Shown here: in pieces, positions 4,983-64,000 of the stretch
Position numbering within the stretch: the first letter of the stretch is position 1
How the letters are laid out: each line of letters starts with the position of its first letter
Assembly: GCA_963921275.4 (NCBI GenBank)
Contig: OZ001293.3
Span: forward strand, 2,112,001-2,176,000
Reading direction: 5' to 3'
Source of the DNA: an uncultured Hormoscilla sp.
GTDB taxonomy: Bacteria; Cyanobacteriota; Cyanobacteriia; Cyanobacteriales; Desertifilaceae
DNA: 64,000 nt
Position numbers and translations under genes: made by a program
The notes under the pieces: generated by a model
What the model saw: only the letters and a program-made list of their open reading frames with translations
What the model was told of the DNA's origin: nothing
Databases searched by the model: none

Positions 4983-5163
4983 ACGCGATTCGCCCCGACC
5001 GGGCACATAGGATGTAATCATGAGGGTTTGAGGTTCCGCAGCACCGAGAACCGGTGTTACTCCCGTACTTGGGGAGGGGGAATCCAACCCCATGAATGCC
5101 AGTGTTCCTAATTTCTTAGGCTAGCTTTCCGCGTTTGACTAAGTTATGGAAAACGAATCGCAT
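4983..5163 (-). mobile_element. Group II intron 5'-end fragment (domain I start), bounded by a 10-bp inverted repeat
   Basis: Minus strand ATGCGATTCGTT...CATGGGGTTGGATTCCCCCTCCCCAAGTACGGGAGTAACACCGGT is homologous to the 5' ends of the introns at 22479 and 63625. Confidence 0.8.
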
Positions 5164-5864: not shown

Positions 5865-7100
5865 ATGACTTCCCCATTACCGAATCTCCTATTCGGCAGA
5901 CACCAATGTCAGTAGCCGGATTAACCTCCTATATCCAGACATTGCTAGAACAAGATGACCAACTCAGACAAATATGTGTAATAGGTGAAGTATCCAGTGC
6001 CAATCGCCACTCTAGCGGGCTATTCTTTACCCTAGGTGCTCCAGGCGCTAAGACAATAGTTAGTTGCGTGATCTGGAATGGCTATCTCCACCAATTCTTT
6101 AATATGCCGGTAAAAGGAGAACTGATAGTTATTTTAGGCCATATGCGCCTTTATCCCTTTAGGGGACAATATCTGCTATTGGTCGCTCAGGCGTTACCCG
6201 CAGGAGAGGGTTTGCAAGCTTTGCGTTACCGCTAACTGCGCGATCGCCTAGCAGCGGAAGGTTTATTCTACCCCCAAAGAAAGCGGACTCTCCCGCCTCA
6301 TCCCCAAACCATCGCAGTAGTCACCTCACCCCAAGCAGCAGCCTGGGGTGATATCCAACGCACCCTCAGACGCTGCTATCCGGGTTTGCAAGTTTTATTC
6401 TCGCTCGCCCTCATCCAGGGAACCCAAGCCGCTGCAGCCATTGTAGCAGCCATTAAGCGAGTAGAATCCGATGGCAGAGCCGAAGTGCTGATTCTCTCCC
6501 GGGGAAGAGGCGCAGTTGAAGATCTCGCCTGCTTTAATGACGAACGAGTCGTGAAGGCGATCGCCCCATTGTCCCATCCCAGTCATTGCTGGCATTGGTC
6601 ATCAGCGAGACGAGACCCTGGCCGACTTAGCAGCGGATGTTTACGTCTCCACTCCCACCGCCGTCGCCATTCAAGCGGTACCAGAACTTGCTACCTTAGA
6701 AATAGAACATCTCGATAGGACTAACGCCTTAAAAAATGCCGTCAAACATCAGCTAGAACAGCGTCAAAGTAAACTGCAACAGTTCCGTTCCCGACTGCGG
6801 CGCCTACAACTCGATCGACTCTTGCAGCAAGAAACTGAAGCCCTGACCTGGAAGCGTCGGCAGCTTGTACAACTAAGTTACCAGAAAATCCAGCAAGAAA
6901 GCCAACACTGCCAGCACCTGGGGCAAAAACTAGCAACCCTCGACCCACACAACGTGCTGCAAAGAGGTTATGCTGTAGTCAGGCAACCCCCAGCCTGCCC
7001 ACTATTATCCGTTCATCCGCCCGCTTAACAGTTGGCGAGGAATTACAGATTCAGTTAGGTCAAGGTCAGGTTAAAGTCAAAATCACCGAAATCCTTAACT
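5865..7100 (+). pseudogene. xseA: Exodeoxyribonuclease VII large subunit, disrupted
   Basis: SVAGLTSYIQ..GEVS, TIAVVTSPQAAAWGDI, IAGIGHQRDETLADLAAD, LDPHNVLQRGYAVV; in-frame TAA at 6233 plus several frameshifts. Confidence 0.9.
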
Positions 7101-18689: not shown

Positions 18690-20031
18690 ATGGGCAAAAA
18701 GCCAACAATTGCGCTCTATCACTTGGGATGCGAAAAAAATCGCATAGATACCGAACATATGCTAGGCCTATTGGCACAAGCAGGATATCAGGTAGACTCG
18801 AATGCAGAGTTAGCAGATTATGTTATAGTCAATACCTGTAGCTTTATCGAAGCAGCACGGGCAGAATCAGTACGGACCCTGGTAGAACTGGCAGAAGCAA
18901 ACAAAAAAATAGTGGTGACGGGCTGCATGGCCCAACACTTCCAAGCCGAGTTGCTAGCAGAACTGCCAGAGGCAGTAGCTGTAGTCGGGACGGGAAGTTA
19001 TAACAAAATTGTAGACGTGATTCAACGGGTAGAAACTGGAGAGCGCGTACAGGAAATATCCGCCGAACCGACTTATATTGCTGATGAAACAACGCCCCGC
19101 TACCGGACAACGACGGAGGCGGTAGCCTACCTGCGCATAGCAGAAGGCTGTGACTATCGCTGTGCTTTCTGCATTATTCCTCATTTACGCGGTCAGATGC
19201 GATCGCGCCCCATAGAATCGATTGTGGCAGAGGCGCAGCAGTTGGCAGCGGAAGGGGTCGAGGAAATAATTTTGATCTCGCAGATAACAACGGCTTACGG
19301 CATAGATATTTACGGCGAACCAAAATTAGCAGAACTGCTGCGGGCCTTGGGAAAAGTGGAGATCCCCTGGATAAGAATTCACTATGCTTATCCGACAGGT
19401 CAGACGGCCCCAGTGCTAGCGGCAATGAAAGAAACGGCCAATGTGCTGCCCTACCTGGATTTACCTTTACAACATTCCCATCCGGAAATCCTCCGGGCGA
19501 TGAACCGCCCCCTGGCAAGGGCGGGTGAATGACGAGATTATTGACAAGCTCAAGGCAGCAATGCCTGCTGCGGTGTTGCGAACGACTTTGATCGTTGGGT
19601 TTCCCGGGGAGACGGAGTCCCATTTTGCCCATCTTTATGAGTTTGTGCAGCGTCATGAATTCGATCATGTCGGAGTGTTTACCTTTTCTCCAGAAGAGGG
19701 AACTCCTGCCTATAATTTGCCCAATCAACTGCCAGAAGCGGTGAAGGAAGATCGACGTTCTAGGTTGATGGCTTTGCAACAACCAATATCCCTGAAAAAA
19801 AATCAAGGGGAACTGGGCAAGGTAGTTGATGTGCTCCTAGAACAAGAAAACCCTGCCACAGGGGAGTATATCGGTCGATCAGGCCGATTATCGCCAGAGG
19901 TGGATGGGTTGGTTTACGTCCAGGGAAAGGCGAGGTTGTCGGGAATAGTGCCTGTGAAAATCACGGCGGCAGATGTTTATGACCTTTACGGTCAAGTTGT
20001 TGGTCATTCTTCATCAGGTCAGGATTATTGA
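18690..20031 (+). pseudogene. rimO: Ribosomal protein S12 methylthiotransferase RimO with one +1 frameshift (C5 run at 19508-19512); real lesion or sequencing error
   Basis: [46 protein letters not shown] domain; removing one C gives MNRPWQGRV. Confidence 0.88.
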
Positions 20032-21470: not shown

Positions 21471-21565
21471 GGTGGGGCGACAATATCTGCCCGGGACGTA
21501 GGGCGGGCGTCTCGCCTGCCCGGGTTTCGTGCCTCAACCCAACCTACAAAGGGAAGGCGATCGGC

Positions 21566-21597
21566 AATTCAAAATTCAAAATTCAAAATTCAAAATT
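21566..21597 (+). repeat. Heptamer tandem repeat (AATTCAA)n, STRR type
   Basis: About 4.5 copies; other heptamer arrays near 37811 (TGACTGG) and 43003 (TGACAAC). Confidence 0.8.
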
Positions 21598-22239: not shown

Positions 22240-24713
22240 ATGTCTACGGAACTGGAAACGGAATTACAAACAGAAGTCGATCGCAGGCGCAATTTTGCGA
22301 TAATTTCTCACCCGGACGCGGGGAAGACCACCCTGACAGAAAAGCTGCTACTTTATGGAGGTGCGATCCACGAGGCGGGGGCGGTGAAGGCGAGGGCCCA
22401 ACAGCGCCGCGCTACTTCTGACTGGATGGCGATGGAACAACAACGGGGTATTTCGATCACTTCGACGGTGTTGCAGTTGTGCGATTCGTTCTAGTCTAAC
22501 GTAGTCAAATACGGAACACTAGGCCAGGTCCAAACTGGTAACTCTGGTATTCATGGGGGTTAAATTCCCTCTCCCCAGGTACGGGGGTAACACCGGTCCT
22601 TAGTGCTATAGAGTCACATCGCTGTGGTGCGAAGCAAGGACTTAAATGTAGGATAGCTGGCAGCCTAAGCCAGTGACGCCGCTAGGAAAGATGCTCAAGG
22701 TTAGAGCAGGCAAACCTGTGTAAACTTCGTTACACCGAACCAGCGGAATAAGGCTTATACGCTGGCCCAAAAGGGAAATGGTAGTTAGTGCTGGTAGTAT
22801 CTGCTTGCCAGCATCGTGCTCAAAGAACTCCCGGAGGAAAGCAGGAACCTAAAAGCATCGCGAAATGATACCAGGGAACGAAGTAACCTCTCGTGTGCTG
22901 TCCTCATTTGGACTAGTTAGATGTAAAGCGTAAGCCACGGGGGGAGAGATAGCCCGAGAAGCTAATGCCTAGGGTAATGCCTATGGATACGTTGAGGAAT
23001 AGGTAAGGATGCCTCAACATGCAGACGCGGGTTGGTGAAAGTAGGAAATCTTGGGCAAAAGTATCTCTAACAAGCCCCAATACCTCGCGTAGCTGAGGTG
23101 GGATGACTGGTAAAACAGACTTGAAAATGGTAATACTAAAGGTTATCTGGCAGCGCCACTTACCAACCAGGAAAGGGGAGAAATCACACGAGATGAGGGA
23201 CAACGGGAGTAATCCCCAGTAATCCTAGCAATGACAAGGCCCTACTTCCCAGTAGCCGGATGCGGTGAAAGTCGCATGTCCGGTTCCGAATGGGAGGGTT
23301 GGGGGGTGACCCCCAGTTCGACCCCTAATTGCTTATCTTAACTGTCAGATTAATCTCCTGGATACTCCCGGTCACCAGGATTTTAGTGAAGATACTTATC
23401 GAACTCTGGCGGCGGCGGATAATGCGGTGATGCTGGAGGATGCTGCTAAGGGTTTGGAACCTCAGACTCGCAAGCTGTTTGAAGTTTGCCGCATGCGCAA
23501 AATCCAGATTTTTACTTTCTTTAATAAGCTCGATCGCCCTACCCGCGAACCCCTGGAACTCCTGGATGAAATCGAGCAGGAACTGGGTCTGCAAACTTAC
23601 CCGACTAATTGGCCGATCGGGACGGGCGATCGCTTTAAGGGGGTGTTCGATCGCCGTCGGAGGCAAATCCACTTATTTGAGCGCAACCCCCACGGTAGGC
23701 GGGAAGCTAAAGATACGGTAGTGGATTTGGGGGATCCCCGCGTGGAGGATTTGTTAGAGCAAGACCTCTATTACCAACTGAAAGAGGATTTAGAACTCTT
23801 GGAAGGGTTGGGGGCAGAATTTGACTTGGAGGCCATCCATGCAGGTCAAATGACTCCCGTTTTCTGGGGTAGCGCTATGACTAATTTCGGGGTCCGGCTT
23901 TTCCTGGATGCTTTCCTGGAATATGCTCTCAAACCCGGCGATCGCAAGAGTAGCGCGGGGATGATGCCACCCAGTTATCCTGAGTTTACGGGTTTTGTGT
24001 TTAAGCTGCAAGCGAATATGGACCCGAAACATCGCGATCGGGTAGCGTTTGTGCGGGTTTGTACGGGCAAGTTTGAGAAGGACATGACGGTCAATCATGC
24101 CCGCACTGGCAAGACGGTGCGTCTCTCCCGACCGCAGAAATTGTTTGCCCAGGACCGGGAATCTGTAGAGGTAGCTTATCCCGGGGATGTGATCGGTTTG
24201 AATAATCCGGGGGTGTTTGCCATTGGGGACAGTATCTACACCGGGAAGAGGATAGAGTACGAAGGGATTCCCTGTTTTTCTCCGGAACTGTTTGCTTACT
24301 TGAAAAATCCCAATCCTTCTAAGTTCAAGCGATTTCACAAAGGGATTTCCGAATTGCGAGAGGAAGGGGCCGTACAAATTATGTATTCGGCGGATGAATC
24401 TAAGCGCGACCCCATTCTGGCGGCGGTGGGACAATTGCAATTTGAAGTGGTGCAGTTCCGGATGCGGAGCGAGTATGGGGTGGAAACTTTGCTGGATATG
24501 TTACCCTATTCTGTTGCTCGTTGGGTTGTTGGTGGTTGGGATGCTTTAGAAAAGGTCGGGCGTTTGTTTAATACCGTTACGGTAAAAGATAACTGGGAAC
24601 GTCCGGTATTGTTGTTTAAGAATCAGTGGAATTTGGACCAGATCCAATCAGAATATAAGGATTTGCTTCTGAATGCGATCGCCCCTGTGGTGTCGGGTCA
24701 GGAACCTACATAG
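22240..24713 (+). CDS. prfC: Peptide chain release factor 3, two exons (22240-22478 + 23330-24713), 540 aa after splicing
   Basis: [57 protein letters not shown]; the F codon is split TT|T. Confidence 0.95.
22479..23329 (+). mobile_element. ORF-less group II intron (851 nt), sense orientation in prfC
   Basis: 5' GTGCGATTCG; domain V AGCCGGATGCGGTGAAAGTCGCATGTCCGGTTC at ~23254-23286; DVI hairpin ending CGACCCCTAAT; EBS2 ACACCG complements exon CGGTGT. Confidence 0.95.
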
Positions 24714-40871: not shown

Positions 40872-42803
40872 ATGAAACTACCTACCTTTCTGATTATCGG
40901 CGTAGAGAAAGCCGGAACTACTTCTGTAAACAATTACCTGAAACAGCATCCTCAAGTTTACATGAGTCCGGTCAAGGAAACCAATTTTTTATAACGAGAT
41001 TGAGAATATGCTGACCTGAGTCAAATTAAACCCAAAGCCAACCGCATCGATACATTTGAAAAATACTGTAATCTATTTCAGGATGTCACAGATTAAAAGG
41101 CGATCGGGGAAGTTTCTCCTAACTATCTTTTTCATTATCAAGAATCAGCTAAACGCATACTCCGTTACGTACCTGAGGCCCAACTGATTGCCATCCTGCG
41201 TAACCCCGCAGAAAGAGCATATTCAGATTACCTGATGCATATCCGGGACGCGATCGGTAATCCCACTAGCTTATCAGAACAGCTCGAATATAAAGCAGAT
41301 AAATCTTACACGCTGCTCAAAGGATTATATTATCAACAATTGCAACATTTTTACGCTCAATTTAATCGGGAGCGAATCAAAATATGTTTGTATGAAGACC
41401 TCTGCGACAAACCTGTAGAATTTATGCAGGCGATGTATAGATTTATCGGGGTAGAGCAAAGCTTTAGCCCGGATATGTCGAAAAAAGATCAAGTAGCGCA
41501 AGTGCCAAAAAATCAATTAGTGAATAAAGTCTTGCGGCAAAAAAATCCGGTCAAAACCTTGGTCGCTACGGGACTGAGAACTATATTACCAGAGTCGGCG
41601 CGGCAGAAATTGCGCTCGACACTAATTAATCTTACAGCTTGTTCAGGAAACAAGTAGAACATTTTTGTGCTAAACTAGAGCTATACTCAATGCAGACCAA
41701 ATTCAGCTATGGGACGTTACTCTCTGGACCTTAGACAAAAAGTAGTCACTGCTTATCAATTGGGCAAAGGCTCGATTCGGCAACTCGCCGAGCAGTTTAT
41801 GCTCAGTCCTGCTACTGTTCATAGTTATATAAAACAAGATCGAGAAACGCAAGATATAACCCCTAAAAAACCCGGTCCCAAACGTCAGGGCAAGCTAGAA
41901 GCCGATCGAGACTTGATCGTGAAGATGGTAAAAGATTACCCAGATTGTCCGGTGAGGCAGTATCGGGAACATCTCCGGCGGGAGCAGGATGTTTATGTCA
42001 GTGTAGGGGGGATGTGTGAGTTCCTAAAAAAAGAAGGCTTAACCCTTAAAAAAAAACTTACCGGGCAGAAAAAGTAGCAACGGAAGCAGGTCAACAGCAG
42101 TGAGTTGATTACCGAGAGCGGGTTCGAGATGTCCCACAGGGAAAATTGATATTTATTGATGAGGCAGCTTTCTGGATAGGGATGAGTCGCGATCTGGCCA
42201 GGAGTGAAAAAGGTAAAAAGGCATTCTATTTAAGACCATTTTATCAGGGGAGTAAAATGACCTTAATCGGAGCAATAAGTCTTGAAGGAGTTGTGGCTAA
42301 AAAAGCAATTAAAGGCTCTATGAAAGGTAAGGATTTTAAGGATTTTATTGAAGATGACCTGGTTCCGAAGCTGAATCCAGGGGATGTGATAGTTATGGAT
42401 AACCTTAATATCCATAAAATGGAAGGGATCGAAGAACTGATAGTCGCTACGGGAGCAAGAGTAGAATATTTACCACCCTACTCACCAGACTTCAACCCTA
42501 TTGAGATGTTGTGGTCAACGGTTAAGTCACTGGTCAGAATGTTCCCAACACGAGCAATGGAGGCGCTAGAACAGTTAATTGAACTTGCTCTGATGCTGAT
42601 TGGAACAAATACGTTTAAGAACTGGTTTACTAAATGCTGTTATTGTACTAATTAAATAGCGAACCTGCTGTAACTCATCAGACAAGAGCCAAACGCCGCT
42701 GTCGCCAGCAGCACGAAAACAACTGGTGGAGTATTATCGTGAAGATATCCTGAAGCTGCAAGATTTGATCGACAGGGATCTGTCATCCTGGCTGATATAT
42801 TAA
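40872..42803 (+). pseudogene. Sulfotransferase with three in-frame stops, interrupted by IS630
   Basis: FLIIGVEKAGTTS..LKQHPQV, ILRNPAERAYS; C-terminus (YYREDILKLQDLIDRDLSSW) resumes in frame at 42673. Confidence 0.88.
41635..42670 (+). mobile_element. IS630-family insertion sequence (1036 bp), inactive
   Basis: TA duplication; CAGC..GTTC termini; orfA YSLDLRQKV; A-run frameshift site at ~42048; DDE motifs FIDE, MDN, LPPYSPDFNPIE; in-frame TGA at 42101. Confidence 0.92.
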
Positions 42804-62300: not shown

Positions 62301-62518
62301 GCATAAAAAAGTAATTTTATGTATCAGAGACGAAAAAAACCTAAATATCCGTAAAGTCTAAGTAAGTAGGTAATTTATATTTGTTAAGATTTGTTAAATA
62401 GGTCGCAACTTGAGTTATGATAGACTTCGGTGCGACTCGTTCCGGCGTAAGTCAGAAATATGACGATAGTCGGGCTAGTATTACACCAGCACCTCAAAAT
62501 CAATTCAGCAACCAAAAA

Positions 62519-64000
62519 ATGAAGCATAAATCTTTTACCAACACCATCGTAGTAGTGGATGCCTCCCTAGAAAACTACCAGCAGCTTATAGACGGCATCC
62601 GGCCTGGGGCCAAATCTTTCCTCTTAGATCTTCGGTCCGATGGCATCAAACAGATCGGCGAACTTCTCCGACAGCATAAAGAAACAGAGGTTCTGCACCT
62701 ACTTTCCCACGGCAGCCCTGGCTGTCTGTATCTGGGAAACTCCCAACTGAGTTTGGATGGGGTCGAGCCGGGAATCGCTTCCCGACCCTCCCTTGAGGAA
62801 CCGGACTTGCGATTTTCACCGCATCCGGCTACTGGGTACTAGGCCCTTTTCATAGGTAGACTTAATAGGAATTACTTCCGTTAGCCCTTGCCGCCTGTCT
62901 TTTCTTCCCTTTCCTGGTTTAGCGAGTGGTTGTTCTGATAACCGTTAGTATCACCATTTTCAAGTCAGTTTTACCAGTTATCCATACCTTATCCTCCACT
63001 TGCGTTTCGGATTAGTTCCGTGGCTTTTTAGGATTACTCATTCCAGCAGCTTCCTAGTATCACCGACCCACGTCAGCGCTGGCTACCCAGCATCATCTAC
63101 ATTACTGTAGATGTTATCCCAGGAATTACCCCGGGCATTCGCTTCTTGGGCCATCCCTCCCCCCGTGGCTTGCGCTTAACATCTAACTTGTCCTGATGGA
63201 CAGCACACGAGAGGTTACTTCGTTCCCTAACAACATTTCGCGATACCTTTAGGTCCACACTATACCCCGGGAGCTATTTGAGTACTATATTAGCCAGAGT
63301 CTAAAACTAATACTAGCTACCATTTCCTTTTTAGGCCAGCGCATATAGCCTTATTTCGCTGGTTCCTTATAACGAGGCTTGCACATGTTTGCCTGCTCTA
63401 ACCTTGGATATCTTTCCTAGCGGCGTCACCGGCTTAGGCTGCCAGTTATCCTACATTTGAGTCCTCGCTTAGCACCACGATGATGTCGCTTCGTAGCACC
63501 GAGGACCGGTGTCACCCCCGTACCTGGGGGGAGGGGAATTTAACCCCCATGCGGTCAGAGTTCCCGGCTAATGAAACCGGGCTAGCGTTCCGTGTTTGAC
63601 CACGTTAGGCTAGAACGAATCGCACAGATCCTCTAGGAGATTACGCCTCTACCCTGCAGAAGTGGAAGGTAAAACAACTCCTACTCTACGGCTGTAACGT
63701 CGCCGCCGGAGATGCAGGAGAGGAGTTGATGACTAAGCTACAGGCCCTGACCGGGGCATCCCTCGCCGCCTCTACTACCCGGACAGGGGCAGCAGCCCGG
63801 GGCGGAAATTGGAAGTTGGAGTGGCGAACTCCGGGGATGAAAACTCCCTTAGCATTGTCCGCAGAAGCTCAGATGGCCTATGGGGGCATATTGATCTCCC
63901 AGCAGGAGTATCAGGCCTTAAGGGCTCTCTATCAAAGCACCAATGGGGCTTCTTGGATTAACAATACAGGCTGGCGGGACTGGAATTTCAACAGCCTAAC
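62519..64000 (+). pseudogene. DUF4347-domain surface protein with probable LRR N-cap, interrupted by an antisense group II intron; runs off the window
   Basis: IVVVDASL..DGIKQI..LHLLSHGSPGCLYLG..QLSL|DPL..LLYGCNVAAG..GGNWKLE..ALRALYQSTNGASWINNTGW. Confidence 0.85.
62755..63625 (-). mobile_element. ORF-less group II intron (871 nt), antisense to its host gene
   Basis: Minus-strand 5' GTGCGATTCGTTCTAG; domain V AGCCGGATGCGGTGAAAATCGCAAGTCCGGTTC; collinear with the prfC intron; removal restores AGT TT|A GAT CCT. Confidence 0.93.

Follow-up and report, generated by a model that had tools for sequence, protein, structure and literature searches.

Group II introns without an open reading frame (ORF) are rare in bacteria and are nearly always found alongside related introns that encode an intron-encoded protein (IEP), according to the available part of PMC4424553. 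The same part reports that trans splicing by an IEP has been demonstrated in a cyanobacterium and that some introns of the chloroplast-like (CL) lineage are located in cyanobacterial housekeeping genes. In the portion of PMC4649490 available to us, 17 introns of Trichodesmium are described as splicing in vivo, and 10 of these have no ORF. Introns of subgroup IIB use three exon-binding sites (EBS), namely EBS1, EBS2, and EBS3 (PMC2882425, in its accessible sections). As far as these portions go, the three papers provide cyanobacterial precedent for introns with no ORF that undergo splicing or mobilisation in trans. Here we describe an ORF-less intron in prfC, the gene for the translation factor RF3, of an uncultured Hormoscilla sp. 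The window analysed is a stretch of 64,000 nucleotides (contig OZ001293.3, positions 2,112,001 to 2,176,000), and all coordinates below refer to it unless another locus is named.

The window contains an 851-nucleotide ORF-less group II intron that interrupts prfC in the sense orientation. The intron opens with GTGCGATTCG at 22479 and closes with GACCCCTAAT at 23329. Its features, together with those of the exons, are listed in Table 1. The insertion point is in codon 80, a Phe codon divided between TT and T, and lies shortly 5' of DTPGH, a motif in the GTPase domain. When the two exons were joined by script, they gave 1,620 coding nucleotides, or 540 codons, in which the sole stop is the terminal one and no frameshift is present. 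The predicted spliced junction is TTGCAGTT joined to TGCTTATC. Positions 2-62 of the Pfam GTP_EFTU model fall in exon 1, and positions 68-186, followed by EF-G_D2 and RF3_C, fall in exon 2. The joined RF3 aligns with uninterrupted RF3 proteins free of indels across the junction. A preliminary description of this stretch, made from the sequence alone, had proposed that prfC is split in mid-codon, that removal of 851 nucleotides restores an unbroken 540-amino-acid RF3, and that the exons are free of lesions. The scripted join bears this out, with exact boundaries.

Group II introns begin with GUGYG and end with AY, and the AY end is also visible in the Rfam model. The termini of the prfC intron, GUGCG (22479-22483) and AU (23328-23329), fit this consensus. 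The Rfam model RF00029 (Intron_gpII), which covers domains V and VI, matches 23251-23329 of the plus strand over model positions 1-77. It reaches 44.5 bits, with E = 1.8e-5 for the whole window, so that this model scan, which the preliminary description had proposed, places domain V/VI above the gathering score of 40. The candidate branch-point A23321 is unpaired in the RF00029 alignment. A permissive scan of the intron region with the Rfam families for group II domains I-IV returned zero matches at E ≤ 10. The 3' tail, TAAT, is similar to the TTTAAT and TTTAAC tails of relatives that carry a reverse transcriptase (RT). On the sense strand the longest reading frame is just 44 codons, and tblastn with the ORFs of four related intron RTs found no match in the intron and no IEP reading-frame remnant in domain IV. 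The claim that the intron carries no RT or maturase ORF was upheld by these results.

Table 1. Coordinates of prfC, its intron, and related intron copies in the window.
Feature	Coordinates	Strand	Details
prfC exon 1	22240..22478	+	ATG at 22240; codons 1-79 and first two bases (TT) of codon 80; ends GTG TTG CAG TT
IBS2 CGGTGT	22466..22471	+	Exon positions -13 to -8; 6/6 Watson-Crick with EBS2
IBS1 GCAGTT	22473..22478	+	Exon positions -6 to -1; 5/6 with EBS1
ORF-less group II intron, 851 nt	22479..23329	+	5' GTGCG, 3' AAT
Candidate EBS3 (A, intron nucleotide 111)	22589	+	Context GGGGGU-A-ACACC; candidate IBS3 is T23330
EBS2 ACACCG	22732..22737	+	Multibranch or internal loop, domain I; aligned with EBS2 of seven related copies
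EBS1 ATCTGC	22799..22804	+	9-nt hairpin loop of 8-bp stem 22790-22797 / 22807-22814
Domain V	23254..23285	+	AGC triad 23254-23256, GAAA loop; RF00029
Domain VI	23292..23325	+	GUGA loop; candidate branch-point A 23321, from Rfam alignment and 3'-end comparison
prfC exon 2	23330..24713	+	Opens T GCT TAT, the T being the last base of codon 80; stop at 24711-24713
Second full ORF-less copy (copy 2), 869 nt	62757..63625	-	RF00029 at 62757-62833, 44.4 bits; antisense in DUF4347 gene
Degenerate 5' intron fragment, about 130 nt	5037..5163	-	Starts ATGCG; 75-77% identity to intron nucleotides 2-134 (blastn)

The pairing between the intron and its 5' exon was assessed over several copies of the intron family. 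Related loci, labeled here with L numbers, come from a search of genome contigs with the shared 16-nucleotide intron 5' end. The search returned at least 44 loci, many of them chance non-cyanobacterial matches. For eight copies, three of which encode an RT, the 6-mers at the aligned EBS positions were scored for pairing with the intron-binding sites (IBS), which occupy exon positions -13 to -8 (IBS2) and -6 to -1 (IBS1). Cognate EBS-IBS combinations formed 9-12 of 12 pairs (mean 10.75), and the 54 non-cognate combinations had a mean of 5.3 and a maximum of 9. The cognate scores are far above the non-cognate ones, which puts the pairing beyond chance. The prfC intron forms 11 of the 12 pairs, each of them Watson-Crick. 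The RT-encoding intron of L031 and the contig-truncated copy of L014 form all 12, which validates the EBS register. Both sites had been placed in the preliminary description, EBS2 with 6 of 6 pairs and EBS1 with 5 of 6 pairs in the loop of a stem, and both were recovered at exactly those coordinates with support from the eight-copy test.

The exon-binding sites differ from copy to copy. The prfC intron, copy 2, L027, and L018 have four distinct EBS1/EBS2 sets, each pairing at 9-11 of 12 positions with its own exon. In an alignment of the 5' parts, EBS1 and EBS2 are the two most variable patches among otherwise similar copies. The stem that presents EBS1 covaries between copies (GCUGG/CCAGC and UAUUAG/CUAAUA). 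The candidate EBS3 base is A in the prfC intron, where the 3' exon begins with T, and G in copy 2, L027, L015, L030, L031, and L038, where it begins with C. The comparison does not extend to L028, whose alignment here was too uncertain. This covariation amounts to one event, so the EBS3 assignment is a candidate and the covariation is suggestive only. We considered whether prfC could be the long-standing home site of the family, and rejected the near-perfect EBS match as an argument for it. By our estimate, a genome of ~7 Mb should contain several sites that fit a 13-nucleotide guide with no more than one mismatch, and the match is therefore uninformative on this point.

The prfC intron has relatives both within the window and outside of it. 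Copy 2 shares 75% identity with the prfC intron and 92% with the L027 copy, and its tail is two nucleotides shorter than that of the prfC intron. It lies within a DUF4347 gene of the plus strand, with positions 1-73 of the Pfam model upstream and positions 72-164 downstream. Being antisense, it is not removable from the mRNA of that gene. In the split DUF4347 gene (62417-63998, plus strand), removal of copy 2 at the 3' end predicted by Rfam sets the frame of the second half off from that of the first by one base. Shifting that boundary by one base, to an intron end of ...CCCCA, would restore the frame. Either an extra lesion in the host gene or an atypical 3' end of copy 2 would account for this. 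The degenerate fragment at 5037-5163 breaks off in domain I and is a dead remnant.

Outside of the window, extended blastn similarity was limited to L015, L018, L027, and L035 among the matches listed, all of them Hormoscilla metagenome-assembled genomes (MAGs), and L041 has 51 nucleotides in common with the intron. L027 is a full ORF-less copy, located on the strand opposite a GT2 glycosyltransferase ORF that runs into the intron. L018 is a truncated 5' half and, at 79% identity, the closest relative of the prfC intron among the same matches. Rfam found a domain V/VI match in 6 of the 20 cyanobacterial loci that were chosen from the at least 44 and submitted to it. In L028, L030, L031, and L038, domain V/VI is located ~2.4-2.5 kb 3' of the 16-mer. 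The introns of L028, L030, and L031 encode RVT_N, RVT_1, GIIM, and HNH domains (Pfam). They have the EBS layout and the 5' 16-mer in common with the prfC intron, and blastn gave no similarity to it beyond the 16-nucleotide seed. The L038 ORF is 99.8% identical to that of L030 and loses its frame near the end. A tblastn search with RF3 gave zero matches among the at least 44 loci listed.

Two arrangements seen among these loci are worth describing. L015 (3336-5298), from a Hormoscilla MAG, is an ORF-less copy with a second copy reversed inside its EBS1 hairpin. A further 3' fragment lies upstream, and together these form a cluster of nested intron copies downstream of recO. In L014, L016, L019, and L033, which are Prochloron MAG contigs, the 16-nucleotide intron 5' end is found within ~50 nucleotides of a contig end in three cases and ~400 nucleotides in the fourth. 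This pattern suggests that a multi-copy intron may be breaking that assembly.

Conservation of the ribozyme was followed across the copies. RNAalifold, applied to the three full copies, predicted 247 pairs, and compensatory changes occur at 41 of these. In an alignment of domains I/II from the prfC intron, copy 2, L027, and L018, the number of unformed pairs out of 144 consensus pairs is 4, 1, 0, and 14, respectively. Of the four unformed in the prfC intron, two fall where the alignment was cut, in a helix that is itself doubtful. The prfC intron and copy 2 differ chiefly in the hairpin that bears EBS1, in peripheral hairpins, and in some stretches of domain IV. Identity between these two copies is 87-97% at the 5' end, in the domain I core, in J1/2 together with the base of domain II, and in domain V. 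A block of domain IV (intron nucleotides 616-660) has about 80-97% identity between lineages that are 75% identical overall. The core, the domain I/II pairing, and the EBS elements of the prfC intron thus appear intact when judged by these alignments.

We interpret the element as a recent non-autonomous intron of subgroup IIB that is predicted to be still spliced from the prfC pre-mRNA with the help of a maturase supplied in trans, and we place the probability of this interpretation at roughly 55%. The intron would be a candidate member of the chloroplast-like type, in a family that is probably proliferating in Hormoscilla-like genomes. Pairing through EBS1, EBS2, and probably EBS3 would have guided reverse splicing of the intron into prfC DNA, and a protein provided in trans would then have reverse-transcribed it. 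Excision from the prfC pre-mRNA would occur as a lariat, aided by the maturase of an RT-bearing relative at another place in the genome, and RF3 output would depend on that excision. Since the GUGCG start, a largely intact domain I/II, domain V, domain VI with its bulged A, and the exon pairing are all retained, continued excision is the most likely outcome. The mechanism of insertion, the need for a maturase in trans, and splicing at the present day are all inferences.

Several observations weigh against this interpretation and are gathered in this paragraph and in the account of RF3 below. IBS1 position -2 forms a U-U mismatch with EBS1. The candidate branch-point A is the 9th nucleotide from the 3' end; seven related copies have theirs at the 7th or 8th. 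Domains III and IV of the prfC intron are unlike those of the sister lineage, and in the 3' half the prfC intron does not form 23 of the 133 consensus pairs, mostly at differing or shorter hairpins. Three of the four rows of that alignment come from the other sub-lineage and no second member of the prfC sub-lineage is included, so this count is biased by the sister sub-lineage and decay is not inferred from it. The minimum free energy z-score of the whole intron is -1.18, compared with -2.67 for copy 2, a difference too weak either way with 20 shuffles each. No RT or maturase domain was found by Pfam in the 64-kb window. Pfam coverage extended to 53 of the 72 window ORFs of at least 110 amino acids plus three custom references. 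The 19 ORFs left out overlap listed ORFs, most of them lying inside scanned ORFs and one being replaced by the exon 2 reference. Searches by tblastn with the four related intron RT ORFs likewise gave zero matches in the window and zero in the four Hormoscilla loci. Copy 2, being antisense in its host gene, and the dead fragment indicate that the family also simply breaks genes.

A source for the maturase would not be needed if the intron spliced without protein. Such self-splicing is attributed to C.te.I1 of Clostridium tetani in the part of PMC4424553 at hand, and the compact 851 nucleotides, canonical domains V and VI, and good exon pairing of the prfC intron, with no RT found nearby, would all be in keeping with it. 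We consider this improbable for the prfC intron. That same part of the paper names C.te.I1 as the only exception known for ORF-less introns of bacteria. The presence of diverged ORF-less copies with cognate EBS and IBS sequences implies mobilisation by an RT, and a mobilising RT is normally the maturase as well (PMC2882425, in the portion available). The conserved block at nucleotides 616-660 of domain IV would also fit a protein-binding site.

The state of RF3 bears on the main alternative reading, in which prfC is being lost and the insertion is a further disruptive hit by a proliferating retroelement, in a genome where pseudogenes accumulate. The gene would then be a young pseudogene, its intron poorly or never spliced and RF3 not made. 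The exons would be clean only because the insertion is recent, and expression of a compatible maturase may be lacking. E. coli can do without RF3. We regard this as a real possibility, though with the odds clearly against it. The comparison of prfC with its relatives, which had been proposed beforehand, is relevant here. The closest RF3 matches, from Hormoscilla sp. GM7CHS1pb (97% identity) and Hormoscilla sp. (93%), both Hormoscilla MAGs, are each a single uninterrupted protein of 540 amino acids. Exon 2 taken separately has 97% identity to Hormoscilla RF3. With the intron absent from both relatives, the insertion is young and postdates a very recent divergence, and the clean exons consequently weigh little. 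The earlier argument from clean exons to splicing is weak for this reason, and also in view of the antisense copies, the RF3 replacements described next, and the RT not seen in the sequences searched.

A three-way comparison assigns 12 unique replacements to the window RF3 and 3 to its intron-less sister (binomial p = 0.035). Homologues were drawn from the 120 matches listed, of which 117 are full-length RF3 proteins. Two of the replacements, P139Q and Q414R, alter residues that all 117 homologues share, and a third, H522Y, alters a His shared by 115 of the 117. The codon for residue 139 (within 23490-23530, plus strand) is CAG and places Gln, instead of Pro, five residues ahead of the GTPase motif NKLD. 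This excess favors loss of the gene, as do the absence of the intron from the two relatives, the dead fragment, the lack of an RT in the window and in the four Hormoscilla loci, and the antisense placement of the family in the DUF4347 gene and apparently in the GT2 gene of L027. Two further damaged genes in the window point the same way. A methylthiotransferase gene (UPF0004 and radical SAM, then TRAM) is split in a frameshift-like manner between ORFs 18690-19532 and 19525-20031 on the plus strand. A 110-amino-acid ORF (6386-6718, plus strand) matches only positions 43-105 of the 315-position model of the exonuclease VII large subunit and is probably a fragment.

Against loss of prfC stand the 1,620 nucleotides free of stop and frameshift, the sense orientation of the intron, and its intact ribozyme core, domain I/II pairs, and EBS elements. 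The replacements in RF3 also avoid conserved columns, with 6 of 12 in columns at least 90% conserved compared with 84% expected at random (p = 0.006). A helicase of the window used as a control has 18 replacements versus 16 for the same lineage pair, and 15 versus 5 against a closer sister. A DEAD-box helicase has 7 versus 4 but is a poor control, with one close relative only. The RF3 excess over the helicase gives a Fisher p of 0.11, and is thus not clearly gene-specific. In a pseudogene-rich genome, a functional intron and a remnant are distinguishable only by experiment, according to the accessible part of PMC4649490.

Splicing of the prfC intron, the interpretation we favor, can also be placed within a wider and more tentative picture. 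A cyanobacterium of the sponge-symbiont type may be at an early stage of an organelle-like colonisation by introns, in which copies enter protein-coding genes in both orientations and a shared maturase acting in trans allows prfC, with its sense-strand copy, still to be expressed. We give this picture somewhat less than even odds. If true, a translation factor would have become newly dependent on a common splicing apparatus, and strains with and without the intron would form a natural before-and-after pair.

The consequences differ with the fate of the transcript. Should the intron be spliced, prfC would join the bacterial housekeeping genes reliant on an intron that is unable to encode its own maturase, and the 97%-identical relatives that lack it would open the cost, regulation, and fate of a fresh intron to direct study. 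If it is not spliced, prfC would be a young pseudogene and an example of intact exons flanking a mobile element being no proof of function. For annotation, automated gene finding will return prfC in fragments or label it a pseudogene, and surveys of introns based on RT genes will miss an ORF-less family such as this one.

Two other features of the window were recorded. An IS630-type transposase gene (41709-42655, plus strand) is split into an HTH_Tnp_IS630 ORF and a DDE_3 ORF. At 21565-21597 on the plus strand, between the DEAD-box helicase gene and a small ORF upstream of prfC, there is a head-to-tail heptamer run (AATTCAA/AAATTCA). The run resembles short tandem repeats of the sort often seen in filamentous cyanobacteria.

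A literature search found nothing joining Hormoscilla and introns, and nothing relevant joining group II introns and prfC. As far as the searches reach, prfC as a host gene and the Hormoscilla-like host genus are new. The kind of intron is known, since spliced ORF-less introns in cyanobacterial genes are documented in Trichodesmium. The preliminary description had called ORF-less copies in housekeeping genes unusual. That label is to be read with some reserve, since ORF-less introns that splice are documented in Trichodesmium and introns of the CL lineage occur in cyanobacterial housekeeping genes.

The ORF-less introns of chloroplast housekeeping genes (such as petD, ndhA, and ndhB) are one point of comparison. 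Domain V of the prfC intron resembles the plastid D5 families RF04356 (34 bits, gathering score 61) and RF04336 (28.5 bits, gathering score 65.5), both matches being below the gathering score. Introns of plastids are ancient, pass down vertically, and rely on host factors for splicing, whereas the prfC intron is absent from a 97%-identical relative.

The introns of Trichodesmium are a further likeness, drawn here by description. Trichodesmium is likewise a filamentous cyanobacterium with many pseudogenes and has ORF-less introns on the sense strand of conserved protein genes. Splicing of these introns is thought to depend on a maturase in trans, and assistance in trans was shown by heterologous expression (PMC4649490, in the portion available). 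Splicing was shown experimentally there and is predicted for the prfC intron, and the host gene and the Hormoscilla-like host organism are different.

The TeI3 introns of Thermosynechococcus elongatus (CL/IIB1), which are mobilised by TeI4 IEPs, also form an ORF-less IIB family with sub-lineages that differ in EBS1, EBS2, and EBS3. Most TeI3 copies are intergenic or inside mobile elements, their driver IEPs are known, and they retain remnants of the IEP reading frame in domain IV, of which none was detected in the prfC intron. The Hormoscilla family, unlike TeI3, has a sense copy in a translation-factor gene and at least one antisense genic copy, and its IEP was not found in the window or the four loci. 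It nevertheless includes several ORF-less copies that have differing EBS sets and lie at cognate sites, which is the pattern that would be expected of a trans-mobilised family like TeI3.

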